This document shows positions 31,367-60,352 of a stretch of DNA of 64,000 nt, piece by piece. Numbering within the stretch: position 1 is the stretch's first letter; every line of letters begins with the position of its first letter. The position numbers were made by a program, and so were the translations under genes. The notes below the pieces were generated by a model. It made no database searches. It saw only the letters and a list, made by a program, of their open reading frames with translations, and was not told the origin of the DNA. This DNA is from a virus, in IMG/VR virus record IMGVR_UViG_3300045988_104520, one strand, 5' to 3'.

Positions 31367-34300
31367 CTATTTATAACTTACATCATCATCCCCTTCCGAA
31401 TCAGGGGTGGCGCCGATGAAGAACATCATTGACTTATTGTTCGTCTGCTGCCACCAATTATAGGCGCGCGCTACGTCTTCCGGCGTCTTGATATTATACC
31501 ATTGTTTGATAAACGTCTGTTTGGTGAGTTGCCTAAATAACTTAGACTCTCCTTTGTATGTACCTGACGTCACCTTATCAAGTGAGTAGTTCCTAAGATC
31601 GGTAAGATCCTTAAGTTTCCGTCCCATAACAAATGGGTCGTTAATGATATCAACCACGTTAAGCTCCATAATAAATGGCATCTGTGAAGCTATTTCGTTT
31701 ATGGTTCTGAATCCGACGTAGGATCCGAATTGAGTAAGCCAACTTTCCTCGTTTTCATCATCATCACGCCACCCGGCAAGAAGCATAGATACGGCTTGCA
31801 TGATAAGGAACGTGCCGGCATAGACACTGAGACGTTTTAGATTGGTTTTCTCTACCTCATTCATATTGTCTTTATTTTCGTTCCAAGCATCTATGATGTT
31901 TTTCATACCAGACTCGGAAGCTAAGCTAAATGTTTTGGCTATCATATTCTTTAACGTAATTGACAGTCCTTCCTCTTCTTGCATTGTCTGGAAATTGAAG
32001 CCACGTCTTTTCCACAGACGTTGAGCCGCCAGCACCAACCATCCTCGGTGGGCGGTCATGAACCTGGCTATCCAGTTGCGTGATGCGGCAGTCCGATTTT
32101 CTTCATTCAAAGATCCGTTACATATCTGCGACAAGCTGCGAACTTGATTTCGAGTTATAGCCATCTGGGTTTCGACTTCCTCGGCAGTAACACCCGATCC
32201 AGGTTTTACGACCACCTTCCCATCCACAACATCTACCATACTCCATAAAGTACGATCTTTTAATGCATTCCATTCTCTTTTTATGGTACTCTGTTCTTTA
32301 TTTCGTTCTTTTTCCATCTTGAAATCTTGGAACGTGTAGAACCGGCCTTTATAGTATCGCACGTTATCCATAGTGGCAATCATAACCTGCGGGTCAAGAG
32401 GGTAGTTCAGGATTTCCATAAAAGCATACATCGGTGAACGCATTAAGGTCCTGGCCACTCTATTGTATCCGGCACCATACATACGATTTCGGATATTGAA
32501 TATCCCCATTCTCTCACCTATGACATATAATTTACTTTTTCTATCTATGTCTCCGGTTTCCGCTATACAAGATGGAGCAAGACGGGAAAACTCAGCCGAT
32601 GCGTATTTAAGGGAGTCTTTGCTTATATACTGTCCTACAGCTGATTCCATGATGAGGTTGATATGGCCGGTAAGGGCGCCGGTAGCTGCCACAAACGGAG
32701 ACAGTGCCAAGTTCATGACCGACATAAACCTTTCAATAGCCATCATAATTCTTGTAAGGTCTACTGTGTACCCACCGATGTTCACCGTAAGTTTTTTGGT
32801 GTTCATCCTAATGCCATAATAATGATCGTTGAAGAAGTCCCTGAACATCTGATATGCTTGGGTTGCTTCAGCCTTTTTCCCGCCTTCAAATTGCTTATTC
32901 AGCAACATCTGCTCCAGTCCTTGGGCGAGCTCTATAGACTTCTGCTTTTCGTTGTATAACGATGACTGCATCATAAGCATCGAATAAGAGTAACCAAAAT
33001 CGTGAGATACGTCATCTTGGTTCTCTAATTCATATATGTAGTATTTAGGTATGGACCGAACCCTATCTTCCGGATCATATACCTCACCCTGACGTGTTTT
33101 ACCATACAGGGAGTCATCTACGCGGTCAAGACATAAGTCGGATACGAAGTTCCTGACCGTACTTTTAAGGTTAATACCTAACCCTTCTATACGTTCTATA
33201 TCTTGTTTGGATATCTGTGGAATAGCATACAGATTAGGGCTCTGCTCTTTGTATAGATCAAGGGATTGTCTTTTTATTTCCTTGAGTTTTTGAATCATAT
33301 TCCACTGCTCTACGTTTTTAGTAGCAACTTCATTACCGTCAGCATCATACTTGATACCAAAGTCATTGAAATACGATTCATCACGATACAGGCTTTTCTT
33401 GGGCATACGATGACCATACCCATGATCTTTTACATAATCAGGGTTACGACCGCTATTTTCGGCTTCAGATTCAGCCACCCATGCCCTTGCAGGGTCGAAA
33501 GACAGGTACGATATGTCCATGCCATAATCTTGGGCGGATGTACCATTTTGTACGTCCTTAACCATCTGCGCCACATCTATCTCACCTCGACCGATTTTGT
33601 CGATCATGGCCGCATATCCGGTAGGCGCCATGCGTTTATAGTACGAAAAAACCTGGCTCCTGGCAAATTCATTAACAATAGCATTAGCTTCTTCTATGCC
33701 CGCTTTTATGTCAGCTTCTATACCCTCTTCTCTTGTATTATTTAAAAATAAGCTGGCCATCTTAGCATTAACAGCATTCCTGAAATCTCTACCGTCTAAT
33801 TCTTTGCTTATACCAAGCTTTTCTGACAGGTAGTTGGTTTCAGATACGGTAAACAGATATCGGTTATCAGCAGCCTTAAACAGCTTATCCCTTAAAGCCT
33901 GAATCCTTTTTGCTTTCTTCGCCGTAGTATGACGTTGTACGAACTTCCATTCCACTTCCTTGGAGTCAGCAAGAGCATTTAAATAAGACTGATTTACTTC
34001 GTTTTCAGCCTTACTGCTTTTAGTAAGGTACTTATCAATATCTTCAAGACCCACCATCTTAGCATAATCTATTAATATAGCGTAATCGGCTTCAATAGCT
34101 TCAGATGCGGCCCTAAAAGCATCTCTTTCAGATGAGGTAAATGTCGCTTCGTTAATTTCTCCGATATCAGCCACATCGCGATTGTTTCCGATTATTTCCT
34201 TGATAATGGCCTTATTTTTTTCTATATCTTTCACAATCGAATCCACGTCAGTCGCATCTCTATCACTTGTCGTAGAACTAATGATATCATGCGCCATTTT

Positions 34301-37873: not shown

Positions 37874-37903
37874 AAGCCATCTAACTTCTCAGTCTGATGG
37901 CTT
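37874..37903 (-). terminator. Rho-independent terminator for the minus-strand small-gene cluster (8-bp stem AAGCCATC/GATGGCTT, T-tract on the minus strand)
   Basis: The plus strand shows an A-run 37862-37873 before the hairpin, which is a U-tract on the minus strand. Confidence 0.65.
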
Positions 37904-37955
37904 AAAAATAATATGAAAAAAAATTATAATCTGACGAAAAATCGTCAAGTTCAGC

Positions 37956-38279
37956 TTATATGTAATGCATGTACCCATCTCGGTGTATAAACCTTCCTGA
38001 TTCAAAGCGCTCAATATCTTCAGGGCAAATAGGGCCTGAATCCTCTCTCCTGGCTTCAAACCAAAGCCCCGGCTTACGAAGTCGGCAAGTTATGATATAG
38101 TTAAAGCAATTGTGCGTAAAATGGAAAACAGATCCTACAGGGAAATACCTATCAGCTTGAAATACGATTCTTTTTCGTTTAGTATCAAACGTGATATCTC
38201 CTACTATCTTAGCCACGTAATAGCTTCTGCCATTTAACGTTTCATCTGTCTGCGGTATCCAATAATAACCTCTTGCCAT
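37956..38279 (-). CDS. Hypothetical protein
   Basis: ORF in the minus block. Confidence 0.5.
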   Translation of the reverse strand: MARGYYWIPQTDETLNGRSYYVAKIVGDITFDTKRKRIVFQADRYFPVGSVFHFTHNCFNYIITCRLRKPGLWFEARREDSGPICPEDIERFESGRFIHRDGYMHYI

Positions 38280-38308
38280 GCCACAAATATAAAAAAAAGT
38301 CGGATAAC

Positions 38309-38629
38309 TTACGTACCCGACTTTATTATTTGTTTAAATAGACCAGTTCCGTCTATTATAATATGACCGTTTCTCATGCGGTCATTATTTGGGTTATAGA
38401 GAAAGTTAAGACCATCCACTTTCTCTTGTTTTTCAAAAGAGTTGATATCCTTTCCTCTACGGGCTCTTTCAAAAGCTTTCTTGAACAACTTGCCTCTAAA
38501 GGTCTTGACGAGGATCTTGGTAGCGTTATTGCCGGCTTTTACCATTGCTTTCCTTGCCTGGTCCTCCGAGACAAAACTGCTTCGGAAAATATACGATGCT
38601 GCTGCTTGTATGTCCTGCTTGGTAATCAT
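38309..38629 (-). CDS. Hypothetical protein
   Basis: ORF. Confidence 0.5.
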   Translation of the reverse strand: MITKQDIQAAASYIFRSSFVSEDQARKAMVKAGNNATKILVKTFRGKLFKKAFERARRGKDINSFEKQEKVDGLNFLYNPNNDRMRNGHIIIDGTGLFKQIIKSGT

Positions 38630-38762
38630 ATGATAAACATTTCTTTCAGAATACTGATCTTTATTCCGTATATCAATTTCATCTCATCTCTATCATATAC
38701 GTCAAAAAAGGATTCACTGGGGTCCTTTGAATCTTCGCTCAATTAAATTATGCAATTACCAG

Positions 38763-38797
38763 TTTGACATACTCCCATCGCTAAAGCAAATGGGATT
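38763..38797 (+). repeat. 35-nt conserved element, copy 2 (TTTGACATACTCCCATCGCTAAAGCAAATGGGATT)
   Basis: 33/35 identical to 7651-7685, same orientation; lies in an intergenic gap of the minus block. Confidence 0.75.
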
Positions 38798-38963
38798 CTT
38801 GGATACAAACGCAAGAAACCCCGATATTACTATCGCTGGAATTACTCTTGCTTTCCAATTCGGAAATGCCCTTCCGAAGAATATTTACTGGACCGTGAGG
38901 CTTGTTCTTGTGATCTTGAACCCATATAGCTGCACATACAACAATTTCCTTATCACACATAAT

Positions 38964-39239
38964 TTACATATTTAAAATACCGTTTTTACCAATATGCTTC
39001 TTTTCTTCTTCAGTAGGCCATTCTTTCTTGAACCTACCATGCCACGTTCCAGGAACCACCACCAGTTTATCATCCTTATCATATTCAATAGCGGCACATT
39101 CAGAACAAAGAGGCTTGCCTTCATATCCCTTTAGCGACTTATCGTAAATACGATTCTTACAAGGTCTTATAAGAGCCCAGTAATATGATGTGGCTGTATT
39201 ATCTATACAGCCACACTTTGAACATACAAACAAACTCAT
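38964..39239 (-). CDS. Zn-ribbon small protein
   Basis: CSKCGC...CSECA. Confidence 0.5.
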   Translation of the reverse strand: MSLFVCSKCGCIDNTATSYYWALIRPCKNRIYDKSLKGYEGKPLCSECAAIEYDKDDKLVVVPGTWHGRFKKEWPTEEEKKHIGKNGILNM

Positions 39240-40015
39240 CCCGCAATCTCCCAGTCATTAGACATAATATCATGTTCGGTTGGATTCCAATTTGATGCTA
39301 CTTTTTGACCTGTATCTATCATCAATATATTTACGTCAAACATACAGATATACTTTTTACCCCAATCGATTCTTTTTATCTTACGACCTAATTTAAGCCG
39401 TTCTAAAGCCTGTTCGAATGTCATGCCATGACGAGGCAGTTTGAGATACTTTTCAAGTCTGTCGGAGGCTTCATTTGGTGTATGGCCATCGTATTCGAAA
39501 GCGGTTTCTCTTTCAGGAACATCAAACAAATCCCAGTATTTGCTTTCATAGTGATTAGATACCTGACCGGTAGGTAGGATCGCCATCACAATAAACCAAT
39601 CATCAGAACCGAAGCATTTTTCTCCATCGCTGTGTCTCCTTGATTTGCAAACTTCAACCTGTCCGTTTCTGGCTAATAGATTAAAGAAGGCAGCGTTATA
39701 CAACATGCGATACCGATACAATTCATTGAAAGTGTGGTATCCGTCAGAGACTTCTCCCACGTCTACAGGCTTCTTGTTTTGAATACTACCCAAAATATTC
39801 TCTATATAGAGCTGTATTTTATACATACCCATTTCGGTGTGGCCGTATTTGTTCAAGATATTATTGACATCGTATTGTATATTAAAATCTTTTTCAAATT
39901 CTACTTCAGGATGATTAGGATAGTAGTAATCTACTGATGCTTCTAACACAGACTTGATATGCTCTACTATTCTCGTGGCATCATCATGTTTAAAAAAAAT
40001 GCTTAATTCCTTCAA
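39236..40015 (-). CDS. Two-domain protein with C-terminal DUF2829-like domain
   Basis: C-terminus MTFEQALERLKLGRKIKRIDWGKK...NPTEHDIMSNDWEI matches the DUF2829 pattern (M.F..AlE.LK.GkK..R..W ... DlL..DWEl). Confidence 0.55.
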   Translation of the reverse strand: MKELSIFFKHDDATRIVEHIKSVLEASVDYYYPNHPEVEFEKDFNIQYDVNNILNKYGHTEMGMYKIQLYIENILGSIQNKKPVDVGEVSDGYHTFNELYRYRMLYNAAFFNLLARNGQVEVCKSRRHSDGEKCFGSDDWFIVMAILPTGQVSNHYESKYWDLFDVPERETAFEYDGHTPNEASDRLEKYLKLPRHGMTFEQALERLKLGRKIKRIDWGKKYICMFDVNILMIDTGQKVASNWNPTEHDIMSNDWEIAG

Positions 40016-40126
40016 CGAATTTAATATCTTCGTTGATTGCTGATTCGAACTCTTCTTTTGTCATCACTCTAATTACATCTTTTTTAAAATCGTCTAATCC
40101 CATGATTTGTTTCAAATTAATTGTTA

Positions 40127-40762: not shown

Positions 40763-40782
40763 GATATTTACAATATTTTAAT

Positions 40783-50700: not shown

Positions 50701-53700
50701 TAGCGATTAAGAACACGAGCCGATTCTTTGTCTATAGACCATCTTGCATGATAAGGCAGTTCTATCACGGTAGCCGTTTCTCCACCTATGTTAAGAGAAT
50801 ACCTTTTAGTGCCATTAGCGTTCGTTTCAGAGCTTATTTGAATAGGAACCAATGATTTTATAGAAGATATAAATTTATCGGCTCTAAGACCTGCAATTTC
50901 ATACCTTTCGTTGCCATCGTTGGATATTCTTCTAACCATCAACGTCTCTGGATTCTGGGCGCTATCTATGTTAGCTCCAGGCGTATTATCGGATTCATCT
51001 AACTCATTTACAAGAGAATCTATATTGGTATCATCCTCCCCAAAATTACTTAACGTAGATTCGGAAATACGACCTTTATCAATAATCCTGTTTTGTTCGA
51101 TATAAGGAAGGAGATCCGTGATGTTTCCAACCTGGCCAAGATCTTCTATGGTAAATACCGAATCGGCAAGCTTATCTTCGTCAACTTTCTCCCCTTTGTC
51201 CCGTCTGTTCATTATATCAACATACAAAGAAATAGCATCATCAAGTTCCTTCCTTTGATCTGGTTCCAAATTGGATTTAGCCATATCAATAATAGCTTTA
51301 TTATCCTCATACACAGATCGAGGCTCAGTAAGTCTCCTAACTTTATCTGATAAATCTTTTATCATCTTAGCCGGACTGTCTCCAAGAAATGATATGTAAT
51401 CATCAATATCCTGCTTGTATTTATCATATATCTCCTTCTCTCTTGGAGATAAAAGATCTTGATTACCTGTATATATCTTGTCTACTATACGTTCTCTAAC
51501 CTCTATAGGTGCAGACAAAAGATCTTCCATAGCCAACTCATAATCAAAATCAGACAATATATCCTCTTTCGGTTTCTGAGTTATACCATCATTTAAATGA
51601 CCAAATACTTTCATTGTAAATGCCTCATCTGAATCTATTTCACCATTGTTCAGGAGTTCATTTATTTTTTCATCTAAACTGATATTGTCTCCTTCCTGGT
51701 TCTGATAAAAACGCTCACTTTCTATAGGCTTGGTATCAGATGACACCATATCATTTAAGAACTTAGAGAATAAAGAAAAATCGTGTCTCATAAATTTCTT
51801 ATCCTGCATGGAGTTCATGAATGACCGTAGAACCTTATATTGGGTAATAGCTTGCTGGTATTTTACCACCATCTTTCTTAAATCCTCTGCTTCTTTCTTC
51901 CCCTTATTGTTCTCGATATAAGTGCTTAAAGAAGCAACAGAATCATAAGCTTTTAATATATCTTCAGCAGTTATTGTTTCGGATTTAAACAACTCAAGAG
52001 CTGATACTCCAGGATCAAAAGAATAAAATACTTCTTTATAACTACTAAGAAGATCTTCTGACAACCTTCTATATTCCTTATTAAGATTATCGTATTTAAT
52101 AGTTTTTTGTTTTATAGCCTCTGCTTCGGTATCATTGCCATCCTCTACTCTTCTTGGAGTTGTAGCCAACCTTTCTATTTCAGCATTCAGATCATTGATC
52201 TCATTACGCAATTCCCTTAACTGATTAGCTGTATCAAAAGCTTGACTTGATAATGAATAAAACGTATTTATATCATCAAACAAATTATTGTCATTTACAT
52301 AATCAGCAATATCATTTGATGCTTCCATTGCCATATCCTCTGCATCCAACCCCTTAAACACAGCATTAGCAACATTAGATCGATAAAGATCAGATGAAGT
52401 CTCAGCAGTAATAGCCTCAGCAAAAGAAGAAGCTTTTTTATAATTGGCTAACTTCTTATCAAAATCTTTTATAATATCTTCCTTGTATTTTTTAACAGTT
52501 TCTTCATCTACTTTCATTTCAGAAGCCAACTCACTTTCGTCAAGGCTTTTAACCATTGACCTGAAATTGTTAGCCGTATCCTCTAACATTCCCATTCTGT
52601 CAGATAATTCAAATTTAGAATAATAATCTGATTCAGGATCATTCATTTGAGCATTAAATTCGGCTAAATTTCGCATAGAGTCTTTTACAGATTGAGAAGT
52701 AAAAGCATTATTACTATTAAATTTCTCAACATCAGTATTAATAGTACGCTCTTTATTTCTCCTTTCATATAAACCAAAAGCACCATTTCTGGCTCCAAAT
52801 AAACCACCAATCAGGGCTCCTATGCCAATCTCTTTCAATCCTTCTTTGGTTGTAAATTGTTCAGCTATGGCCTTAGAAAAAGAATCAACTATAGAAGACG
52901 TAGCATCAAGATACGTCTTATCATATCTTGATCTAATAAAATCTTCCCCCATGCGCTGAGCAACACCTTGCATGCCTTCCTCCCATACACCTTCAGATAT
53001 GGGTCTTTTAGATACATTCCAAACAGTAGCTAAGGATTTCTGGAATAAATTTGCTTTTACCGTCTGTAATCTTCCAGCATCACCCGCTACCTTCTTAGTC
53101 CCTAATCCAAACAAATAGCGATCTACAAAACTCTTTGATCCCCTATATGTGTTTGATACACCCTTTAATCCAGGTATGTATTTAGAAGCAAAACCAGTGT
53201 CTACTCCAAGATATTTTCCCAGAAGAAGATAATTGGATAATCCAACTATACCCATATTAGCTAAAAATATGCTGTTTGCTGTATCGGAAATAGAACTCTT
53301 AAATTCAGCCATCTCAGACTGATTAGGATTCCGACCATACATATTTTTAAAATATTCCTTGTATTTACTTTCAGAGTCTTTCATGAAGGACTGAGCCTCC
53401 ACGGCAGACTCCCAGCCGGCGCCCACGAACGTATTTACTCCTACCTTGGCCATATTGCCTATGGCCCTGCCGTACATCGCTCCTGCCCTATACGCTCCAA
53501 AAGCTGATTTTACAGCACTTGCCGCAATCTTAGACGCCGCCATCTTTCCGGCCACTCTCATCCCTACTTTAGCGCCAACAGCTCCAAGACTTGACACGCC
53601 CATCCCACCTGTAAGGTAGGCAGACAGAATAGCTCCTGTCGTAAACGATAGACCATTTCCAATAACATCATTAAAAATAAAATTTGCAGTTCCAAGACTC

Positions 53701-54509
53701 TGCAAAAATCCCATATCACGCTCTTCTCTTGTATAATAATGAGGAAGAGAGTGGTTTATCCTTTCATCTATATCATTTATGGCCCGTGTAAAATCATTGT
53801 CAAATGCAGAAGATAACGTACCAGTCTTTATAAGATTATACGCAGCCGGGATAATACCTACTACTCCTGATACACCATATAATGCTGTTTTTGTGACAAG
53901 TTTTCCTATACCATTAACAGCCTTATTCCAAGTAGTTTGCCTTCTTCCGTAATAATCTTCATTATCCCTTCCTGGCATATAACTTTTAAACTTTGCAAGA
54001 CCGATGTTCCCATCGGATAAAAAGTCATATGCTTCATCTAACTTAATAGTTCTTCCTTTACCAAATACACCAAAATCAACAGCAGATGACTGTTGATTAC
54101 CAGCTATAACCTCACCATAAGACGTTTGTTTACCAGAATAAGTATTCCTTGATTTATCTTGAATAGATTTTATCATGGAATTTAACTTATTATAAGACTC
54201 CTCTTTCTTCTTTCTTGGATCATCTCCACCATTCAGAGCCGATTTTAGTCCAGAAAAAGATGTGTCTACATCAAAAGAAGTATCTATTCCGCTAATATCA
54301 GACCCTTTTTCTGAATCATCATCAGGATTTATGGCTGATACCGGGGGAGTATATGAACCTACTTTCATCCTCTCCATCTCTCTTTTTGCTCCCTCAATAA
54401 GAGAAGATTCTTCTTCATATCGCGTAGGAACTACGGCATTATACCCTCTTAATCCAGTAGATGGTAAGAAACCTGATTTCTCTACCAATGTCTGTTCCTT
54501 ATTTTCCAT
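47790..54509 (-). CDS. Giant virion-associated protein (2239 aa) with Gly/Ala-rich hydrophobic segments and Pro/Ala-rich linker
   Basis: 6.7-kb uninterrupted ORF; GVSGVVGIIPAAY... and GAVGAKVGMRVAGKMAASKIAASAVKSAFGAYRAGAMYG segments. Confidence 0.85.
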   Translation of the reverse strand: MENKEQTLVEKSGFLPSTGLRGYNAVVPTRYEEESSLIEGAKREMERMKVGSYTPPVSAINPDDDSEKGSDISGIDTSFDVDTSFSGLKSALNGGDDPRKKKEESYNKLNSMIKSIQDKSRNTYSGKQTSYGEVIAGNQQSSAVDFGVFGKGRTIKLDEAYDFLSDGNIGLAKFKSYMPGRDNEDYYGRRQTTWNKAVNGIGKLVTKTALYGVSGVVGIIPAAYNLIKTGTLSSAFDNDFTRAINDIDERINHSLPHYYTREERDMGFLQSLGTANFIFNDVIGNGLSFTTGAILSAYLTGGMGVSSLGAVGAKVGMRVAGKMAASKIAASAVKSAFGAYRAGAMYGRAIGNMAKVGVNTFVGAGWESAVEAQSFMKDSESKYKEYFKNMYGRNPNQSEMAEFKSSISDTANSIFLANMGIVGLSNYLLLGKYLGVDTGFASKYIPGLKGVSNTYRGSKSFVDRYLFGLGTKKVAGDAGRLQTVKANLFQKSLATVWNVSKRPISEGVWEEGMQGVAQRMGEDFIRSRYDKTYLDATSSIVDSFSKAIAEQFTTKEGLKEIGIGALIGGLFGARNGAFGLYERRNKERTINTDVEKFNSNNAFTSQSVKDSMRNLAEFNAQMNDPESDYYSKFELSDRMGMLEDTANNFRSMVKSLDESELASEMKVDEETVKKYKEDIIKDFDKKLANYKKASSFAEAITAETSSDLYRSNVANAVFKGLDAEDMAMEASNDIADYVNDNNLFDDINTFYSLSSQAFDTANQLRELRNEINDLNAEIERLATTPRRVEDGNDTEAEAIKQKTIKYDNLNKEYRRLSEDLLSSYKEVFYSFDPGVSALELFKSETITAEDILKAYDSVASLSTYIENNKGKKEAEDLRKMVVKYQQAITQYKVLRSFMNSMQDKKFMRHDFSLFSKFLNDMVSSDTKPIESERFYQNQEGDNISLDEKINELLNNGEIDSDEAFTMKVFGHLNDGITQKPKEDILSDFDYELAMEDLLSAPIEVRERIVDKIYTGNQDLLSPREKEIYDKYKQDIDDYISFLGDSPAKMIKDLSDKVRRLTEPRSVYEDNKAIIDMAKSNLEPDQRKELDDAISLYVDIMNRRDKGEKVDEDKLADSVFTIEDLGQVGNITDLLPYIEQNRIIDKGRISESTLSNFGEDDTNIDSLVNELDESDNTPGANIDSAQNPETLMVRRISNDGNERYEIAGLRADKFISSIKSLVPIQISSETNANGTKRYSLNIGGETATVIELPYHARWSIDKESARVLNRYTDVSIQDVGNSYSLVYKRLDSDELVPYRTGVGFGENEVDKIDQEALSSLKKGDKVNLEIDVNDTYNQSLFAEYNDAVQSGDKKRIESAENKLVSNMVIKVMSGNRFVSVVKADTGGIDGISKIRRTAFNKWKKDAGRSATISVGTHVVAQTLPGRPVFNMRVNGQGYGQVENLPITEKGAEKVSDVGYVLNGKVVLKNGSKYTGFPFAYSILNDKGNNYKNVRVPVVVIKGKNGLNYLFPVSLRSVESEEGKKWISFIDMLLESGDSELLQMGQDDIQDLNAYLTKLGLDPASYQVSYLNPISGLIKAREAIEKLSTVPDVVKWVEDGSRSVKDIVTSEVESGIDFEGEMFVAPKIRIQFGKSSSRSKSLIEDDLPFSDEGKTVTSKEYVDVYEEEMPEEGAVRGTQPAPLAQPAPAAQAMQSLPGKKRTSRKNFSLMLNEIESHIEKEGLPPYANIFDFIARKIVGGDLRFLRERGNPKSLKEEMGLEPKGTVGDKISTPSSKGGKTLNEYVSWLRSQTDQVVVDYVGPRSDEQIISELKNFLKYINFVPSKALNYSLRVNGMDTLKEYGTKEEVEKMESDINSLVSKVLPTVDNKTVEDVSTAIKSNNLPAIWEPVESLDMTNEEKIEFLNNVADFLSGIPEYDAVVESIESESDNILNDGKEGSAEGGAVRTEEDGDKKGDGEGKGQSRTNVEVKGNVELPGYEEGRVDNYRKNGDKFSDIAEVTLWLLRRAAGITSIPEGEEVYVEGDEVNSIMTDMESRYGIDTINHSHTTKAIRDLNGVSGYKVEYGLTFLTYDPFIRISNPREEYKAAKDEPRISEEPLTHISRVTTPYFLYGGDEAYTSVPAKVEPIPEKIMGRNGIKFGMSVVELTKLGYKKAGGNWIYKFYMNSGVYDLYNISTGEAFRAKPDLGVKISSSAFIRSLSQSGRKIQNMMSNMSQEEIDRNKNLVEGSDNSDSINELNKEC

Positions 54510-54512: not shown

Positions 54513-57500
54513 TTATTCCCTATTTACACTATTCAACAACTTCATCAACTTGCCGTTTTTATTCAAAGACGCAGGTAAATTACCTCCTTCTTTTGCCGCC
54601 ACCATATCCTTAATCTCCTCTGTTATGGCTGCCACAACAAAATCAACTATTTTTTTCTGAGGCGCAACAGCAAGTTCTTTAGACACATTATCCGCAAACC
54701 ATACATTAGGAGTATCAAACGAATCTATTAACTCAGGTTTACCATTCTCCATAAGATAAAGCCTTGTCTCATATCCATAACCGTAACTTGTCTTAGGATC
54801 ATAACCTTCAACCTTTACACCAAGCTTTCCACTGTTATCCAATATATCTTTAGCTGCATTAAGAAGCCAAACCTTTTGTTCTGGCATATCATCTAAATTA
54901 TTACCAGATTCATTTATCATATCTGATAACACTTTCATCATTGAAGATACAGAAGCATAAGCGGGTGATATATCTGAATTTTCAAGCATCTTCGGATACC
55001 ACATATTGGTATCACTTCCAAATGTAGGTCTTATAATACCACTTTCATATCCACCTATATCGACGGAAGGAGTATTAATACCAGGATCTATGCCATTATT
55101 TATCAACTCTGTTTCAGATACCTCAACAATATCTATTTCCTCTCTTTCACCAGTATGATTAGCAACCAAACTGTAAGTCTTCTCTCCATTGTCGGCTATT
55201 CCCGATTCTGTCAAAGAAAATGATTCAATAGTTGCCGATGATGATTTAGATTTACCAACAGGATGCTCTGCCATTTTTTTAGTAAATAGATCCCTGAGAA
55301 CACCCATCTCTCTATAACCAGCCTCCTTGGAGGTTAATTTGGTTGAATACGTTACTGTGTTAGGTGAATACAGTTCGAGATATTCTTTACGTATCTCATT
55401 TATACCATCATCTTGAACCTTAGTTATTTGATTGGCTATATTAATATCGCTTACTACATCACCTCCAACGCTCTCCATTCCGCTAATAGAATACAGTGTA
55501 TTAAAAAACACCTTTTCTTCACCATCCGAGAAACTATTTTTTACATCATCGTATTTTTTTAAGAAATACCTGCCACTTTTGCTATCCCTCTCAAATACTT
55601 TAGATAAATCAATGCCATCATTTTTCACCCTCTTTCTTATAGTAGCTATATCAGCAGGCGAGAATCCTTTTTCATAATATCTTACTCCAGATTCTACATC
55701 GCCGACTGTACCTCTATTTTTTCTTAAAATATCATTAAGGGATAACGCTGTAGCATAGGCTATATATTCTTCGGGTTTACCTCCTTCCTTCTGCGCGATC
55801 GCATTTGCTATTTCAGATACAATATTATCATAAATCTTATTCTCCTTCTTAATTCTATCATTCTCTATATCCATCTTGTCTACAGCGCTATTAAGCTGCA
55901 TATAAGCATCTGTGGCAGCTTTTCTCTCTGCCACAGGTAGCTTGTCAAACATATCATTAGAGAGACCTCCATTGTCCTTTATATACTTAAGAAGTTTTTC
56001 TTCATCCATAAGATACTTGTATCCTGATGTTTCATCCGTCATATTTCTTGATATGGCAGCTTGAATATTTTTCATGTTTTCAGCACCAAGGGCTGTAGAT
56101 AGTCTACTTCCGGATGTTACAAGATCTGTATATGCCTTATTAAACTTCTTATGAGTTTCTTCTGATATGCTAATATTTTTAGTTTCGATAGGATTAGCTG
56201 AAATAGTTCCACCAGAGTTTGTGCCAACGCCCACCTGCATGGCTCGGCTTCCAGCTCTGCCGCCTGCCGCTCCTGCACCAGAGGACATAAGTTTTGCTAT
56301 TCTGGCTTCATTAAGCCTATTCTGCATCTTCAGACGTTCTTCGTCTAATCCAAATCTGGCTTCATCCTTATTCTTACCATATTCAAACTCTGCAATATCC
56401 CTATTTCTTTCATATTCAAATTCTATCTTCCATTTTTCGAAATTCAAATTAGCTAATCTTTCCCTCTGATTATATTCTTTGGTTTTCCAGTAAAGCTCGT
56501 CGGCTTTGATTATGAAAGACGAATTATCATAAGCATATGAAGCAGCAGCATTATTAATAAAATTATTTTCAATAACCCTCATCGCTCCAAGATACGGATC
56601 GTAAGCCCTTTCATCCATTCTGCTAAATTCAGATTTCATGGAAGCTATTTCAGATTTGGCTCTCTTTATTTCATTTTCAACCATTTCTTTCTTTGCAGGA
56701 TCAGAACCCAAACCGGAAAGATCGGCAGTAAGAGCATCAACATACCTCTGCTTATCACTTATCTGCTTATTCATAAAACCAAGAACAGAATCATACGAAT
56801 ATAAAGAGGGATTAGAGTCTACCATGTAAATAGCCTCCACCTGCATCTGCTGCCTTGCTTTATCTGATAACCCTGACAATGCAAAAGAAGCTATCTGTTC
56901 AGGAGTAAGCATATCCTTAGTTACTTCTTGTACTGCCCCGGTAGGATGACCATCCTTGTCAAGAATAGGAATCTGAACTTTAGCTCCTTTATGAAGCTTG
57001 CTTATAAAATCTATCCTATCTTTTAATTCCTTATTATAATCAGTATAAGGAGTATATTGAAGAGGAGCAAGACGGGAACCAGCCTTTCCATCATTCACCC
57101 ATTCATTATACGGCTTTAAAGCCGCATAAGCATTCGCAGCAGAATAAAGTTCTGGATTATTTATTTGTAAATCAGATAGCATTTTATGCATTCTCCTGCC
57201 TTCTTTTGTGCCGGCAATCGCGTTAATGACCGTATCATCCAACACCGAACTGATCTCTCCTTGTATGGCTCTCGTAACACCATCAGAAGAAAGATCCACG
57301 CCTTTAAATTTTTGATTGATGTTAGCAATCACACCTGACATCTTATCTTCCATATAAGCGCGGGCTTCAGGCTTATCTATCTCTTGACCAATAAGATAAT
57401 CTACCTGGGTATAAATCTTTTCACGAGCAGCATCAACCTTCTGCTGTTTGTACATCATGACGTCCTTAACAAGATCTATGTTGTAAGGACTAACATACGG

Positions 57501-57536
57501 GGCATATTGCCTTAAAATACTATACTGTGAAGCCAC
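54513..57536 (-). CDS. Large virion-associated protein (1007 aa; GTG start in the track)
   Basis: 3-kb ORF; coiled-coil-rich; abuts the neighbouring genes. Confidence 0.8.
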   Translation of the reverse strand: MASQYSILRQYAPYVSPYNIDLVKDVMMYKQQKVDAAREKIYTQVDYLIGQEIDKPEARAYMEDKMSGVIANINQKFKGVDLSSDGVTRAIQGEISSVLDDTVINAIAGTKEGRRMHKMLSDLQINNPELYSAANAYAALKPYNEWVNDGKAGSRLAPLQYTPYTDYNKELKDRIDFISKLHKGAKVQIPILDKDGHPTGAVQEVTKDMLTPEQIASFALSGLSDKARQQMQVEAIYMVDSNPSLYSYDSVLGFMNKQISDKQRYVDALTADLSGLGSDPAKKEMVENEIKRAKSEIASMKSEFSRMDERAYDPYLGAMRVIENNFINNAAASYAYDNSSFIIKADELYWKTKEYNQRERLANLNFEKWKIEFEYERNRDIAEFEYGKNKDEARFGLDEERLKMQNRLNEARIAKLMSSGAGAAGGRAGSRAMQVGVGTNSGGTISANPIETKNISISEETHKKFNKAYTDLVTSGSRLSTALGAENMKNIQAAISRNMTDETSGYKYLMDEEKLLKYIKDNGGLSNDMFDKLPVAERKAATDAYMQLNSAVDKMDIENDRIKKENKIYDNIVSEIANAIAQKEGGKPEEYIAYATALSLNDILRKNRGTVGDVESGVRYYEKGFSPADIATIRKRVKNDGIDLSKVFERDSKSGRYFLKKYDDVKNSFSDGEEKVFFNTLYSISGMESVGGDVVSDINIANQITKVQDDGINEIRKEYLELYSPNTVTYSTKLTSKEAGYREMGVLRDLFTKKMAEHPVGKSKSSSATIESFSLTESGIADNGEKTYSLVANHTGEREEIDIVEVSETELINNGIDPGINTPSVDIGGYESGIIRPTFGSDTNMWYPKMLENSDISPAYASVSSMMKVLSDMINESGNNLDDMPEQKVWLLNAAKDILDNSGKLGVKVEGYDPKTSYGYGYETRLYLMENGKPELIDSFDTPNVWFADNVSKELAVAPQKKIVDFVVAAITEEIKDMVAAKEGGNLPASLNKNGKLMKLLNSVNRE

Positions 57537-60352
57537 TATTTGGTCCTCCTTCTTCTTTTATTTTCGTCATCTTCTTCATTTAAACTTCTCAAGTAAGGTG
57601 TAGAATAATCACCCATATTCATCACATCCTGATTACCTTGAACGTAAATAATTTGACCACTTGGAAGCATTCTCATATTCGGAGCTATGGAAGCTATGGT
57701 ATTCAACGATGTACGAACATTAAACTTATTCTGTATCTCACTGTTTATGCTGTCATAATAACGAGCAAGATTTTCATCCCTTATAGCCATAGCCTTCAAT
57801 AACCCAGATTCATAACGTTGCCTTTCCGCTATGTTCTTATCGTCTGTCTGAACATAAGCCATTTCATTGAATCTATCAGCTTCGTTTATTTGCCTTGCGT
57901 TATTGAAATTTACTTCGTTAATGTACTTGGCTATATTGCTTCCGGCTATGGCGTTCATATTAGCCAGAATAGCGGAGCGCTGGGAGTCGGGCACGTCACC
58001 TACTGCGTCCAACTGAGCCGATGTCGCGCGGTTGAGCTCGTTGATATACTGATCAGCAGATTGAAGAACCGGGTCTATTCTCGGAGCCTGATGCCTTTCC
58101 AGACCTTCTATCTCCAAGCCTGTATCGAGCGTTCTCAGCATCTCCGGGAAAATAGGACCGAACGCCGCCGGTCTGCCCTGTCCTTTAGGTCCGTTGTCTT
58201 CAACCACCTCCTCTGTATCGGTGTCGGTTGCAGTCGTAGGCGTACTTGCTTTCGGTTTTACCTCTATCCTTCCAGTAGATCCAATCTTAGGCGGTGTAAG
58301 GCCTGGTGCTATGGGACCGGCCTCAATAGGCTTCATTTCTGGTTTAACAGACTCAAGAACGAAGTCTATTTCCGGCATTAACCCACTATCTCTTAAAGCA
58401 ACAAACTTATTATAATCGGAGCCCAGAATCTTCTTAGCGGCATCAGATTTATCACCAAATAAGTCAACATAATTCTTTATCCCTTTTTCGTTTAACAATC
58501 TTTTTTGCTCTGCCGAAACAACGTCCAACCCATAATAAGAACGAGTAGCTGTTGTCTGACCAAACTTATCATCTACGGCAAATGAATTATAAGCCTGATT
58601 CCCTCCGTAGCTTCCGGCGTCCTGGCCCCAGAATCCGTATTCATCTCTGAATTTCTTGGCTGCATCAGCATTCGTAATAGCGCCTACATCAGCTAACGCC
58701 CACAATGCATTTAATTGCCTGTTGTATCCTTTCTGGAAACCTTCTGTATCAAAATCACCATCCGTATTGTACTTGTTAGCCCATCGGTTTATGTCGAGCA
58801 AATTAGATACCGCCTTATCATTTACCCTGCCGTATCCTAAATTGCTTCTATGTTGGAGATTCTGGTTGGCATTGACACTGGAATCAGGATTAAGAATCTG
58901 CTCACGACCACTAACATCAGATACAGTCATATTAAGAGTTCGTCCAAATAACTGATTGATAAGCTTATTGTAGCCGATAGCATTCTTTCTAAGTTCCTCC
59001 AGCTCCTTCTGAGTAGGTCCACCTTCAGCCATTTTCCTGGTTTGCTTAACATACTCGTCATATATCCAGTTCTTGGCATCTGATTCTGCAATATTAAAAG
59101 CCTTGGCTTGTTTCTTTACCTGATTCAGATCAACAACCCCGCCATACCTGAAGAAAGCATCCATCTTCTCGTTACGCTTAGATTCTTCCTGTTTGCCATA
59201 AACGATTTCAGCGAAAGAACGAAATTGTACTTCAAGCTCGTCTATCTCTTTCTGGTTTTCATTGACGTACTTGGAAAGAATAGAAGCATTAAGATTAGAT
59301 GTATTTTTATCTTTTACATCTTCATTTTTCTCTAATCTCTTATATACACGCTCCTGATCTTCATACTTATCAGACAAACCGATCTTCTTCTTATATCGAT
59401 CAAGGAGTGTAGCATACGTATCTTTAGACGTTGCCTTAATACCGTAGTTTTCTCTAACGTAAGAGGCGAACTCATCATCTATCTTACGATAATCGGAAAC
59501 AATATAAGCTTCCGGTAAATCAACTGGCGTGCCTCCATTCTCATGCCTGTTTCCTTTAGCTTCCATAGGCCCCACTGAATCAGGCGTCAGCACATACTCG
59601 CCTTTCTCTATCTCTACGTTAGCATTATCCTCCATAGATTTAGGAAGAGGATAAATATATTCGCCGGTCATATCAGACGTATCCATCTTCTGACCGTTAC
59701 CTAAATTCACGCCACCACCTTCACGTTCCCACTTGATGAATTGCTGACGACGCTCCTTGGCAAGTTTTTCCCTTGCAGCCTGCTCGTCTCTGCTGGCAGC
59801 ATATGCAGCAGATGAAGCTCCCATGATATTACGGGTAAGACCTAATCCTAAACTAACACCAGATAAGGCAGCTTGAGCCACGTTAGCGCCCACCTTATTA
59901 CCAGCTCGTATCCTGCCAAGGCTGGATCCGAACATCTGAGCTCTGCTGGTTAGGTCGGGTGAGTAATATGGGATAGTCATAGGATCGAGAGGATTTCCAT
60001 CCTGTGATCGCTTTTCTTTTGATTGATTTTCTTCTTTATCAACACTAACAATAGTTCCTTTGGGCATAGACTTAGGATCGAACGTATTGTTATTACTTAC
60101 ATTCATAGTCGGAATAGAAGGTTCTTGCATTTTTATAGTAGAATAGTCAGGACCTATAATATTGTCAAATCCTGCCTCCATCATGTCTATTTCCGAATTT
60201 ATCTCACTCATACCAGGAACATTGGACATATCCATATCAATATAAGGATTAGATGTCGTATCAGCCTGTTGTGTAACATCCTGAACACTACCACCAGGAG
60301 CGAATACCGGACGATTTTTTATGATTCGTAATCTCATATCATCTTTTTTCAC
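57536..60352 (-). CDS. Large virion-associated protein (938 aa). The track start is GTG; an in-frame ATG 15 nt downstream (about 60337) may be the true start.
   Basis: 2.8-kb ORF; a TATCTTTG box overlaps the GTG. Confidence 0.8.
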   Translation of the reverse strand: MKKDDMRLRIIKNRPVFAPGGSVQDVTQQADTTSNPYIDMDMSNVPGMSEINSEIDMMEAGFDNIIGPDYSTIKMQEPSIPTMNVSNNNTFDPKSMPKGTIVSVDKEENQSKEKRSQDGNPLDPMTIPYYSPDLTSRAQMFGSSLGRIRAGNKVGANVAQAALSGVSLGLGLTRNIMGASSAAYAASRDEQAAREKLAKERRQQFIKWEREGGGVNLGNGQKMDTSDMTGEYIYPLPKSMEDNANVEIEKGEYVLTPDSVGPMEAKGNRHENGGTPVDLPEAYIVSDYRKIDDEFASYVRENYGIKATSKDTYATLLDRYKKKIGLSDKYEDQERVYKRLEKNEDVKDKNTSNLNASILSKYVNENQKEIDELEVQFRSFAEIVYGKQEESKRNEKMDAFFRYGGVVDLNQVKKQAKAFNIAESDAKNWIYDEYVKQTRKMAEGGPTQKELEELRKNAIGYNKLINQLFGRTLNMTVSDVSGREQILNPDSSVNANQNLQHRSNLGYGRVNDKAVSNLLDINRWANKYNTDGDFDTEGFQKGYNRQLNALWALADVGAITNADAAKKFRDEYGFWGQDAGSYGGNQAYNSFAVDDKFGQTTATRSYYGLDVVSAEQKRLLNEKGIKNYVDLFGDKSDAAKKILGSDYNKFVALRDSGLMPEIDFVLESVKPEMKPIEAGPIAPGLTPPKIGSTGRIEVKPKASTPTTATDTDTEEVVEDNGPKGQGRPAAFGPIFPEMLRTLDTGLEIEGLERHQAPRIDPVLQSADQYINELNRATSAQLDAVGDVPDSQRSAILANMNAIAGSNIAKYINEVNFNNARQINEADRFNEMAYVQTDDKNIAERQRYESGLLKAMAIRDENLARYYDSINSEIQNKFNVRTSLNTIASIAPNMRMLPSGQIIYVQGNQDVMNMGDYSTPYLRSLNEEDDENKRRRRTK

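Follow-up and report, generated by a model that had tools for sequence, protein, structure and literature searches.

The window analysed here, a stretch of viral DNA of ~64 kb, carries a block of giant genes that can with good confidence be regarded as the module for the virion cargo, or ejected proteins, of an epsilon crAss-like gut phage, gene-for-gene orthologous to the classical 'transcription block' and lacking an RNA polymerase (RNAP). The block consists of five minus-strand giants of 2148, 752, 2239, 1007 and 938 aa (p2148, p752, p2239, p1007 and p938) and a 179-aa gene, and all six open reading frames (ORFs) listed in a preliminary description of this DNA were confirmed (Table 1).

With crAssE-Sib, a published epsilon crAss-like phage with a genome of ~151 kb (positions 1–151,256), the window shares ~95–97% identity. 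Protein identity between p2148 and its ortholog there (OR575929) was 97.4%, and DNA identity to crAssE-Sib was 94.6%. Relatives were found on contigs of 140–158 kb, and a locus search with the p752 alignment returned solely relatives at 94–100% identity, a set too uniform to represent diverse families. By its close identity to recognized members, a genome size of ~150 kb among relatives, orthology to the phi4:1 block and the lack of a DxDxD RNAP, the phage is a member of the Epsilon group of crAss-like phages (Yutin et al., 2021), which is called 'Epsilonunovirus' by Babkin and colleagues (2024). The gene order of the block is matched in Cellulophaga phage phi4:1 and in a distant 128-kb contig, and the block is collinear with g067-g066-g065 of phi14:2 and the Gp47/50/49 cargo block of ΦcrAss001. 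The GC skew of the window flips sign at ~31.2 kb, consistent with the strand switch.

The block had been placed downstream of a tail-lysozyme gene, and this was borne out by a Phage_lysozyme2 domain in the upstream neighbour. The homolog of that gene in phi4:1 is gp041, annotated as a 'tail protein' (E=3e-11). The crAssE-Sib ortholog is 806 aa, and the real start of the gene probably lies beyond the end of the window. No Pfam or PHROG match was found for the adjoining 339-aa gene product, which has nine Cys and is therefore not Cys-depleted. Similarly, no family match was found for the 179-aa protein, whose gene shares its first 7 nt with the end of the p2239 gene. The giants had been described as occupying ~29 kb. 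Their ORFs do span that distance but not as an uninterrupted series of giant genes, since ~7 kb (37.9–44.7 kb) consists of ~15 small accessory genes. Stop-codon recoding or tRNAs were considered as the cause of the fragmented appearance of 37.8–45 kb and rejected; there are no tRNAs, and the small genes are real, annotated in crAssE-Sib and provided with Pfam domains. Both phi4:1 and L088 have compact blocks without this island.

Table 1. Features of the cargo block and its borders (window coordinates; all on the minus strand).
Feature	Position	Residues	Strand	Basis or remark
Tail-lysozyme protein, C-terminal 596 aa	62185..63975		-	Upstream border of cargo block; cut by window end
Phage_lysozyme2 (PF18013)	62560-63012	322-472 of lysozyme protein	-	E=2e-21
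339-aa gene	60406..61425		-	Between lysozyme gene and cargo genes; TAnnTTTG element upstream
p938, Cys-free virion protein, probable cargo	57536..60352		-	phrog_36695, phi4:1 gp040; 0 Cys
p938 partly conserved patch EKGEY..KG..HE.GG	59498-59605		-	Alignment
p938 non-conserved DGDFD	58748-58762		-	Motif scan
p1007, Cys-free virion protein, probable cargo	54513..57536		-	phi4:1 gp039 homology; 0 Cys
p2239, gp67-type giant, first of linked trio	47790..54509		-	Homology to gp67/Gp47
p2239 conserved region with Gly/Ala-zipper-like hydrophobic segments	52749-53960	184-587	-	Homology and hydropathy
p2239 sole Cys	47793-47795	Final residue	-	Cys count
179-aa gene	47257..47796		-	Between p2239 and p752
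p752, in RNAP slot, not a polymerase	44972..47230		-	Synteny and partial gp66 homology
p752 gp66-homologous part	46538-47221	4-231	-	Aligns to gp66 residues 1-217
p752 terminal cysteines	47216-47218; 44978-44980	Cys5; Cys751	-	Cys scan
Accessory island of small genes	37889..44746		-	Inserted between p752 and p2148; outside cargo machinery
Bro-N/KilAC antirepressor	43392-44261		-	Pfam; in accessory island
DUF7841 protein	41692-41985		-	Pfam; in accessory island
WDGH+Tad2-like protein	39236-40015		-	Pfam; in accessory island
p2148, gp65-type giant, last of trio	31367..37813		-	Homology to gp65/Gp49
p2148 N-terminal module	37613-37813	1-67	-	hhalign vs p752: 96.9%, E=1.8e-10
p2148 N-terminal cysteine	37799-37801	Cys5	-
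p2148 invariant EE..HF patch	36329-36433	461-495	-	Alignment
p2148 gp65-like C-terminal region	31514-33235	1527-2100	-	hhalign
p2148 single TM-like helix	31775-31831	1995-2013	-	Hydropathy

The earlier assignment of the block to the giant virion or ejected proteins of crAss-like phages is upheld by homology of p2239 to gp67/Gp47 and of p2148 to gp65/Gp49, and by phi4:1 orthologs for every large gene; gp035 and gp037–gp041 of that phage are virion proteins according to an annotation from experimental MS/MS. p2239 matches phi14:2 gp67 (E=1.4e-8), ΦcrAss001 Gp47 (E=1.4e-14) and phi4:1 gp038 (E=2e-60), and its residues 181–320 match 'RNA-polymerase subunit' genes of IAS virus, cr85_1, cr112_1 and cr128_1. 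It has both features of the gp67/Gp47 type: it comes first in the trio, and near its N-terminus is a conserved region containing Gly-rich hydrophobic segments. The Gly/Ala-zipper-like segments noticed previously are present at residues ~204–230, 277–311, 406–431 and 561–579 and are moderately hydrophobic; hydropathy analysis at KD >= 1.6 revealed no strong transmembrane helices. Membrane insertion of p2239 is plausible because these segments belong to the part of the protein that is also conserved in proteins of the gp67 type.

The C-terminus of p2148 aligns to residues 787–1398 of gp65 (hhalign probability of 98.4%, E=5.5e-15), so that p2148 has the conserved C-terminal region of ~600 aa that marks the gp65/Gp49 type. 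Matches were also obtained to Gp49 of ΦcrAss001 (E=3e-19 and 3.5e-7), phi4:1 gp035 (E=1.5e-80), phrog_37651 (E=1e-76) and cr52_1 gp35 (E=5e-30). An AF2 model of residues 180–1379 was mostly helical and had no significant PDB fold match. A zincin-like HExxH metallopeptidase motif has been reported for gp65 orthologs. p2148 contains no HExxH and has an invariant EETAH (EE..H) instead, which is also found in Gp49, IAS virus, cr85_1, phi4:1 and L088, while phi14:2 gp65 has HEIMH. A weak BLAST match of residues 1075–1106 beside the DFDID of gp66 was dismissed as noise, as the motif is absent and profile support is lacking.

Two further giants are also related to virion proteins of phi4:1 detected by MS/MS. 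p1007 matches gp039 (E=1e-14) and a 996-aa protein of L088 (E=9e-17), and p938 matches gp040 (E=1.5e-30) and phrog_36695, a 'virion structural protein' (E=1.9e-38). Neither has detectable similarity to Gp45/Gp46 of ΦcrAss001. The string GNRHENGG in p938 was located at residues 267–274. Its suggested role as a peptidase- or lysozyme-like site found no support: a partial core, KG..HE.GG, is all that is conserved in phi4:1 gp040, Pfam and PDB sequence searches gave no match, and the PHROG is annotated only as above.

The occupant of the RNAP slot, p752, was compared with the vRNAP gp66 of phi14:2 by deep profile–profile alignment (hhalign). Residues 4–231 aligned to gp66 residues 1–217 with a probability of 96% (E=4.9e-9, 205 columns), and no other region aligned. 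Thus, p752 contains the N-terminal region of the gp66 family (residues 1 to ~217), and approximately the first 220–280 residues are shown to be common to both proteins. The rest of p752 forms a helical body, that of a carrier family with a wide distribution: the p752 profile matched 801 cluster representatives, and 266 IMG/VR stretches encode a relative. Members of the family stand alone, carry C-terminal extensions or have inserts after a 65-residue N-terminal module (N-module), and their extra domains include ART-PolyVal, LPD23 and eCIS_core. The proteins of slots 2 and 3 both carry this N-module of ~65 residues, M..C.I...G..S.L(F/Y)...F..(F/Y)G(D/H)W, which was not found at the start of the gp67-type proteins examined. 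No Pfam model matches the N-terminal module or the body of p752, and when family profiles of p752 and p2148 were searched against the PDB, the outcome was coiled-coil noise or no match.

Babkin and colleagues (2024) reported an HHpred match of the 752-aa protein of crAssE-Sib (ORF98) to gp66 (95% probability, 46% coverage, E=3e-3) and called this protein, published as 'DNA-dependent RNA polymerase', a virion RNAP. The gene does lie in the syntenic RNAP slot, and the only significant PDB match of the p752 model in Foldseek is 6vr4_A. Nevertheless, it is extremely improbable that p752 is a highly divergent yet functional polymerase. Stand-alone vRNAPs are ~2,100–2,400 aa, and the p752 model is mostly helical. 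The D(F/Y)DxD motif is kept in 35 of 37 gp66-family proteins, yet no DxDxD occurs in p752, nor in p2148, p2239 or p1007. Homology is limited to gp66 1–217 even with deep profiles, whereas gp66 has its catalytic elements at residues ~1000–1640 (preprint of the gp66 paper; Drobysheva et al., 2020/2021); neither HMM searches nor deep hhalign detected homology in p752 to the two-DPBB core, connector, bridge helix or trigger loop. Furthermore, the larger members of the p752 family bear ART and LPD domains and no polymerase cores. A gp66-type vRNAP encoded elsewhere in the genome might be supposed, as the window covers ~64 kb of ~151 kb. Rearrangements do occur, since the RNAP gene and the gp67-type gene lie on opposite strands in IAS virus, cr85_1 and ΦcrAss001. 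This explanation is highly improbable as well. Run with --max on ORFs from all six frames of the window and of the crAssE-Sib genome, which four loci covered in full, a gp66-family HMM found no catalytic core; it matched the N-terminal module only, in p752 (E=2e-4, HMM positions 12–78) and at the N-terminus of the crAssE-Sib p2148 ortholog (E=1e-3). As a positive control, recoded fragments of the distant phage cr52_1 matched the core at E=1e-62. No other RNAP is annotated in the crAssE-Sib record, the HMM had no significant match among gp035–gp041 of phi4:1, and Yutin and colleagues (2021) reached the same conclusion for the entire Epsilon group, in which they noted no DxDxD protein. The preliminary description was right that the giants have no polymerase signature: a motif scan found neither DxDGD nor DFDxD in any of the five. 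The two reasons it offered, an RNAP too divergent for recognition by eye or located outside the window, do not hold.

A polymerase of a different or unrecognizable fold (T7/N4-like single-subunit or PhiKZ-like split multisubunit) might also be hidden in p1007, p938 or p2239 beyond residue 600. Structure-level comparison covered p752 and p2148 180–1379, while p2239, p1007, p938 and p2148 1380–1526, together ~4,300 residues to which no fold or function is assigned, were covered by sequence methods. Phage RNAPs can diverge extremely, and p938 contains the string DGDFD. It is the only DxDxD in p2239, p1007 and p938; with DHDSD in p179 it makes up all such strings found, which is approximately the chance level. 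As a cryptic catalytic site it was rejected: the segment is missing from the phi4:1 ortholog, and DGDFD is therefore not conserved. In addition, Pfam searches with all giants returned no polymerase domain and nothing relevant, PHROG matches were uncharacterized or 'virion structural protein', single-sequence PDB searches with the five giants gave nothing significant, and the alignments examined showed no polymerase-like conserved acidic motifs in p1007 and p938. A hidden polymerase is accordingly considered unlikely. Finally, the giants could remain outside on the particle as fibres or tail components; they are labelled in GenBank and PHROG only as 'structural protein', and ejection in this phage is argued from homology. 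That reading is very unlikely: Gp47 and Gp49, the homologs of p2239 and p2148, were placed in the capsid cargo zone of ΦcrAss001 (Bayfield et al., 2023), p752 and p2148 have the vRNAP N-terminal module, and relatives bear injected-effector domains typical of polyvalent proteins. The giants are also extremely Cys-depleted compared with the true external proteins of the phage; their Cys content is 0.13%, against 1.85% in the remaining proteome.

The interpretation of the block as a polymerase-free cargo module implies that all five giants would be packaged inside the capsid, as inferred from their orthologs in phi4:1, phi14:2 and ΦcrAss001. They may be extruded partly unfolded through the tail, before or along with the DNA. 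The glycine-zipper-like region of p2239 and the C-terminal hydrophobic region of p2148 would help to form a trans-envelope conduit, and p752 would act as the middle carrier of a three-protein set, the payload of which in other lineages may be the RNAP core, as in classical crassviruses, or consist of polyvalent domains such as ART.

Proteins of this set are almost Cys-free yet have conserved cysteines at particular termini across the Crassvirales examined: the C-terminus of the gp67-type protein, both ends of the RNAP-slot protein and the N-terminus of the gp65-type protein. An N-terminal Cys is present in 88/94 and a C-terminal Cys in 93/94 members of the p752 family; in the gp66 family the counts are 31/36 and 32/36, respectively. 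Among module-bearing proteins longer than 1 kaa the corresponding counts are 60/61 and 61/61, regardless of the last domain. In the gp65/p2148 family the N-terminal Cys is present in 116 of 119 proteins and the C-terminal Cys in none (0/119). All eight stand-alone gp67-type proteins end with a Cys, which is the sole one in seven (IAS gp058 has one more). The N-module accompanies the N-terminal Cys among the proteins examined, and gp67-type proteins have neither. The 517-aa gp037 of phi4:1 has no HMM-recognizable N-module, yet it keeps the Cys and starts with MASC; a p752-proximal segment is found at the C-terminus of phi4:1 gp038, and the gene boundary is therefore shifted. In some lineages the trio proteins are naturally fused into one polypeptide, and disulfides have been seen in ΦcrAss001 virions. 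In ΦcrAss001 the terminal cysteines are C2339 of Gp47, C5 and C2404 of Gp50 and C5 of Gp49, and the study of that phage included samples with and without reduction. A literature search for descriptions of cysteines in cargo proteins found nothing, and the ΦcrAss001 atlas never uses the word 'cysteine'.

From this layout, and with the Cys depletion, the natural fusions and the virion disulfides as further support, it may tentatively be proposed, as one possible arrangement, that the trio is joined head-to-tail in the virion through the terminal cysteines. At each junction the Cys-bearing C-terminal tail of one protein would be docked on the Cys-bearing N-module of the next, probably with a disulfide between them, and the RNAP slot would be a general payload slot. 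The coupled trio could then thread N-to-C through the tail in gene order as a single 'train' and dissociate in the reducing cytoplasm. Such a payload slot would contain the RNAP core in classical crassviruses, ART and other effectors in relatives, and the helical body alone in this phage. On this head-to-tail proposal, epsilon phages without a polymerase would have kept p752 as the obligatory link in the middle.

The block closely resembles that of classical crassviruses (phi14:2 g067-g066-g065 and ΦcrAss001 Gp47/Gp50/Gp49; Drobysheva et al., 2020/2021; Bayfield et al., 2023). In both, it lies downstream of tail-lysozyme or muzzle genes, the first giant is of the gp67 type with a conserved Gly-rich hydrophobic region, and the last is of the gp65 type with the ~600-aa conserved C-terminal region and an EE..H/HE..H patch. 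The N-terminal module occurs in the proteins of slots 2 and 3, the layout of terminal cysteines is identical, and the upstream cargo genes are Cys-free or almost so. In contrast, the middle protein of classical blocks is ~2,200–2,400 aa, whereas p752 has 752 aa and is without the two DPBB domains, bridge helix, trigger loop and DFDxD. Two further differences are the absence of detectable similarity of p938 and p1007 to Gp45/Gp46 or to phi14:2 gp68/gp69 (only sub-threshold blastp matches were obtained) and the 7-kb accessory island that splits the block here. Cellulophaga phages phi4:1 and phi17:2 are cultured Epsilon members. In phi4:1 (gp035–gp041; annotation of Holmfeldt et al., 2013; Yutin et al., 2021) gene order is the same, all six large genes are homologous pair by pair, the vRNAP core is likewise absent and the terminal-Cys layout is identical; it differs in having a marine host and no accessory island, in addition to the N-terminus of gp037.

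Polyvalent proteins (Iyer, Burroughs, Anand, de Souza and Aravind, 2017) are likewise giant and proposed to be co-injected with DNA, and relatives of p752, p2148 and gp66 bear ART-PolyVal, LPD23, DUF6782 metallopeptidase and methyltransferase domains. However, that class is defined by at least two disparate enzymatic domains in a single injected polypeptide, and in p752 and p2148 Pfam recognized none, such domains being limited to their larger relatives. Neither crAss nor Cellulophaga nor LPD23 was found in a search of the text of Iyer and colleagues (2017). A functional analogy may be drawn with T7 gp14/15/16, P22 gp7/16/20 and the N4 gp50 vRNAP with its partners, internal capsid proteins that are extruded partly unfolded and build a conduit; in N4, a polymerase is delivered. 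No sequence or fold similarity to these ejection proteins was found, and the proteins described here are much larger. We know of no report of a terminal-cysteine pattern in the T7, P22 or N4 proteins.

With the virion RNAP missing, early transcription in epsilon phages probably depends on the host RNA polymerase. The element TAnnTTTG was found upstream of 8/24 minus-strand genes, including p752 and p2148 (~1.8 expected), and of 0/37 plus-strand genes; the -7 element alone showed no overall enrichment. The full Bacteroidota promoter, TTTG-N19-21-TAnnTTTG, gave four matches vs 1.1 expected, and 3 of 100 shuffles also reached four, a signal too weak to be retained.

These results correct the record, as the protein published as the virion RNAP of an epsilon crAss-like phage is no polymerase, and the Epsilon group, said to be without the 'transcription block', does possess it, minus its catalytic core. 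Epsilon phages accounted for 13–18% of crAss-like reads in a gut virome survey (Yutin et al., 2021). Infection that starts with the host RNAP, unlike that of their relatives, would have consequences for host range, for sensitivity to rifampicin and for a possible temperate-like regulation. Two functions of crassvirus giants appear separable, cargo delivery (N-module and terminal tags) and polymerase activity, and the protein in the RNAP slot resembles a modular carrier. The structure of ΦcrAss001 raised the question of what determines the order in which cargo proteins are ejected and the continuity of this process. The terminal-cysteine code, conserved from marine Cellulophaga phages to ΦcrAss001, provides a hypothesis for cargo ejection and may offer a candidate answer.

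All six ORFs that the preliminary description had named in the giant-gene region were confirmed on the minus strand, with identical coordinates (see table). The 29-kb block that they were said to form does contain these ORFs but is not continuous, as the 752-aa and 2148-aa genes are separated by approximately 7 kb (37.9-44.7 kb) with some 15 small genes. The GC skew changes sign at about 31.2 kb, and the tail-lysozyme gene upstream of the block, which is cut by the window end, encodes a Phage_lysozyme2 domain (E=2e-21). The 2148-aa protein (p2148; the other giants are named likewise) shares 97.4% identity, and the DNA 94.6%, with crAssE-Sib (OR575929, 151 kb, human gut), an epsilon crAss-like phage (Babkin et al. 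2024, PMC11054128). p938 is 89% identical to its crAssE-Sib ortholog and p2239 only 66.5% (OR575929 85649-92023), which could be due to local mosaicism or fast evolution of this protein. In the deposited crAssE-Sib record, the p2148 ortholog (OR575929 103085-109487, L001 25086-31488) is divided into two overlapping CDSs of 846 nt and 5,658 nt, whereas the window has a single intact ORF; the split probably reflects a frameshift, or an artefact of assembly or annotation.

Features of the giant-gene region and its surroundings in the window
Feature	Position	Strand	Remark
p2148 gene	31367-37813	minus	gp65-type slot
EE..HF patch of p2148	36329-36433	minus	residues 461-495
p2148 terminal Cys codon	37799-37801	minus	C5
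Accessory island	37889-44746	minus	7 kb between p752 and p2148
WDGH + Tad2-like (Thoeris anti-defence 2) protein	39236-40015	minus	accessory island
DUF7841 protein	41692-41985	minus	accessory island
Bro-N/KilAC antirepressor	43392-44261	minus	accessory island
65-aa ORF	44549-44746	minus	position of crAssE-Sib 'repressor'
p752 gene	44972-47230	minus	RNAP slot
p752 terminal Cys codons	44978-44980, 47216-47218	minus	C751, C5
179-aa gene	47257-47796	minus	between p2239 and p752; start overlaps p2239 end by 7 nt; 3 Cys
p2239 gene	47790-54509	minus	gp67-type slot
p2239 terminal Cys codon	47793-47795	minus	C2239
p1007 gene	54513-57536	minus	
p938 gene	57536-60352	minus	
Tail-lysozyme gene	62185-63975	minus	cut by window end
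Gene starts preceded by TAnnTTTG	37813, 38279, 39239, 41222, 44261, 44746, 47230, 61425	minus	

Comparison with other crassviruses shows that this is their cargo block, with a middle gene that encodes no RNAP. In phi14:2 the order is g067, g066 (the virion RNA polymerase, vRNAP) and g065; p2239 residues 184-587 match gp67 (E=1.4e-8), and the p2148 family matches gp65 787-1398 (98.4% probability, E=5.5e-15). In ΦcrAss001 the counterparts are Gp47 for p2239 (E=1.4e-14) and Gp49 for p2148, the latter with two matching segments (E=3e-19 and 3.5e-7). Residues 181-320 of p2239 additionally match genes labelled "RNA-polymerase subunit" in IAS virus, cr85_1, cr112_1 and cr128_1. The order is the same in phi4:1, a cultured phage of the Epsilon group: gp041 (tail), gp040, gp039, gp038, gp037, gp036 and gp035. 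Matches were obtained for the 596-aa C-terminal part of the tail-lysozyme protein with gp041 (3e-11), p938 with gp040 (1.5e-30), p1007 with gp039 (1e-14), p2239 with gp038 (2e-60), the p752 HMM with gp037 (5e-33) and p2148 with gp035 (1.5e-80). The large phi4:1 block proteins are all annotated as virion proteins from experimental MS/MS (phi4:1 record). A distant 128-kb contig (L088) carries a compact block of 996-2148-730-133-1935 aa. Given these matches to phi14:2, ΦcrAss001 and phi4:1, the earlier designation "giant ejected or cargo proteins" is supported by orthology. Gp47, Gp49 and Gp50 of ΦcrAss001 have been placed in the cargo zone of the capsid, and their extrusion in a partly unfolded state is considered likely (PMC10172136); by orthology, the giants of the window would be packaged and ejected.

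Gene boundaries within the block shift between lineages, since the p752 profile is split over two phi4:1 genes: positions 94-174 correspond to residues 1872-1952 at the C-terminal end of gp038, the p2239 ortholog, and positions 202-707 to gp037. The 179-aa gene of the window matched no family; small genes of 119-133 aa occur in phi4:1 and L088 at another junction, between the slot-2 and slot-3 genes. In IAS virus, gp055 ('molybdenum carrier', 37477-39990, 837 aa) lies directly upstream of the RNAP gene and overlaps it. Its sequence begins with MSLYC and includes a Cys close to the C-terminus, and the annotated IAS RNAP is without an N-terminal Cys. gp055 looks like a detached N-terminal part of the RNAP, or the result of a sequencing frameshift, the latter because the IAS record contains X residues.

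The preliminary description had found no canonical polymerase motif by eye, and indeed DxDGD and DFDxD are absent from all five giants. Only two DxDxD strings occur in the six ORFs, DGDFD (p938) and DHDSD (179-aa gene), about as many as expected by chance. A gp66-family alignment of 16 sequences was built, together with a wider set of 37, of which 35 keep D(F/Y)DxD, the exceptions being one truncated protein and one sharing only the N-terminus. At maximum sensitivity, the gp66-family HMM was applied to every six-frame ORF of the window and of the complete genome of crAssE-Sib, a phage 95-97% identical to that of the window but not the same one. Matches were confined to profile positions 12-78, with p752 at E=2e-4 and the N-terminal end of the crAssE-Sib p2148 ortholog at E=1e-3, and no match to the RNAP core was found in either set of ORFs. 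In the control cr52_1 (Suoliviridae), the core was matched at E=1e-62 even by fragments broken by recoded stops. For the giants, no polymerase family was matched in Pfam, the PHROGs hits were all to uncharacterised families or to "virion structural protein" families, and sequence searches of the PDB had no significant result. Structure models covered p752 and p2148 residues 180-1379; p2239, p1007, p938 and p2148 1380-1526 were covered by sequence methods only. The two options offered earlier, an RNAP too divergent to be seen or one lying outside the window, therefore both fail, as this HMM detects no core in the window or the crAssE-Sib genome.

Babkin et al. (2024) annotated ORF98, the p752 ortholog, as "DNA-dependent RNA polymerase" from an HHpred match to phi14:2 gp66 (95% probability, 46% coverage, E=3e-3) (PMC11054128); the crAssE-Sib GenBank record labels ORF98 hypothetical. 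An AF2 model of p752 from the family alignment (pLDDT 81.8, pTM 0.72) is mostly helical, and its sole significant Foldseek match in the PDB is gp66 (6vr4_A, E=6e-5). Shallow profile-profile comparison aligned the N-terminus only (59-67 columns), and deep profiles (118 and 35 sequences) aligned p752 4-231 with gp66 1-217 (96% probability, E=4.9e-9) and nothing else. The catalytic elements of gp66 lie well beyond this region: connector 1095-1238, DFDID 1361-1365, bridge helix 1529-1559 and trigger loop 1598-1636 (gp66 preprint). The relationship of p752 to the vRNAP is therefore limited to the N-terminal region, and the published polymerase label is not supported.

Relatives of p752 are encoded by 266 stretches in IMG/VR, and an exhaustive HMMER search recovered 801 cluster representatives of its module. 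The module occurs as a stand-alone protein of ~750 aa, with long C-terminal extensions, or interrupted directly behind residue 65 by inserts of 300-1,900 aa. The gp66 HMM matches none of the larger proteins. Their extra domains include ART-PolyVal, LPD23, eCIS_core and DUF3293, which are hallmarks of "polyvalent proteins" (Iyer et al. 2017, PMC5512222).

The first 65-100 residues of p2148 are a module common to p752 (96.9% probability, E=1.8e-10) and gp66 (86.6%). The model of residues 180-1379 (pLDDT 70.8) consists of long helices and one small beta domain and has no significant PDB match, the best (E=0.14) being nucleoporin-like solenoids. An invariant patch, PSA.ALAD...EE..HF, is conserved in the gp65-type proteins of ΦcrAss001, IAS, cr85_1, phi4:1 and L088, and phi14:2 gp65 has a canonical HEIMH at about the same place. 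The patch may represent a modified form of the zincin-like site described in gp65, in which Glu takes the place of the first His. The only strongly hydrophobic helix of the block (p2148 residues 1995-2013) lies in the C-terminal gp65-like region. Relatives of p2148 carry LPD23, DUF6782 metallopeptidase or methyltransferase inserts.

The Gly/Ala-zipper-like segments noted earlier in p2239 are moderately hydrophobic (residues ~204-230, 277-311, 406-431 and 561-579) and fall in the region conserved with gp67-type proteins; membrane insertion is plausible. GNRHENGG is present in p938 and partly conserved, the core common to phi4:1 gp040 being EKGEY..KG..HE.GG, and this region, earlier suggested as a possible peptidase- or lysozyme-like site, matched no known catalytic family.

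Cysteine is scarce in the five giants, with 9 among 7,084 residues (0.13%); in this phage, replication proteins and virion proteins other than cargo, 15,870 residues in all, contain 1.85% (binomial P about 1e-44). No Cys occurs in p938 or p1007, and the upstream cargo genes of the other phages examined are also free of it, apart from Gp45 of ΦcrAss001 with two. Four of the nine lie at extreme termini: the last residue of p2239, C5 and C751 of p752, and C5 of p2148. This pattern is conserved and follows slot order. Among eight stand-alone gp67-type proteins (p2239, phi14:2 gp67, phi4:1 gp038, L088, L090, IAS gp058, cr85_1 gp056 and ΦcrAss001 Gp47), all have a C-terminal Cys, which is the sole Cys in 7/8, IAS gp058 having one more. 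Proteins of the RNAP slot have Cys at both ends: gp66 has exactly two (C3 and C2179 of 2180), and ΦcrAss001 Gp50 has C5 and C2404 of 2412. N- and C-terminal Cys are found in 31/36 and 32/36 of the gp66 family, 88/94 and 93/94 of the p752 family, and 60/61 and 61/61 of module proteins >1 kaa, whichever domain is last. In the gp65-type slot the Cys is N-terminal (116/119) and never C-terminal (0/119), and it is the sole Cys in gp65, Gp49, cr85_1 gp054, phi4:1 gp035 and the L088 protein. In cr52_1 the gp67-type and RNAP proteins are fused, with NNCKGK at the end of the fusion and MAKGIC at the start of the following gene. The N-terminal module accompanies the N-terminal Cys, and gp67-type proteins have neither, among the proteins examined; in phi4:1 gp037 the Cys is retained but no module can be recognised. 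The two terminal Cys of p752 fall in lower-confidence parts of the model (mean pLDDT 62 for the first 10 residues, below 50 for the last 7). The pattern extends across Steigviridae, Suoliviridae and the Epsilon group (window; loci L003, L087, L088, L090, L091, L092, L093 and L002).

We tentatively propose, as a possibility that we would not call probable, that terminal Cys and N-terminal module couple the three proteins head-to-tail. The resulting chain would thread through the tail in gene order, with p752 as its obligatory middle link and the RNAP slot as a general payload slot. Natural fusions of slot proteins in some lineages fit a covalently continuous functional state. The ΦcrAss001 atlas documents inter-protein disulfides in the virion and proposes that the order in which cargo proteins are extruded depends on their interactions with one another; it does not mention cysteines in cargo proteins (PMC10172136), nor is the terminal pattern mentioned in the literature examined. 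Alternatively, the terminal cysteines could serve metal bridging or intramolecular closure of the middle protein, or act as a processing signal.

With no vRNAP, we infer that early transcription depends on host RNAP. TAnnTTTG, a Bacteroidota-type -7 element, lies 10-120 nt upstream of 8/24 minus-strand genes (about 1.8 expected), those of p752 and p2148 included, which hints at host-RNAP promoters inside the cargo block. It precedes none of the 37 plus-strand genes, so it is not decisive evidence for host-RNAP transcription of early genes. Unlike the window, the compact blocks of phi4:1 and L088 are without the accessory island. In locus L090, a KilA-N/ANT gene and a TnpB gene lie on either side of the p752 homolog. 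These genes and the island suggest that the junctions around the p752 gene are hot spots for insertion.

Both the phage and the lack of an RNAP had been published before, Yutin et al. (2021) having noted that the Epsilon group is without the DxDxD protein. This analysis adds that the block is orthologous to the classical "transcription" block, that the published RNAP label of the 752-aa protein is refuted, that this protein belongs to a large modular carrier family, and that a terminal-cysteine code is conserved.
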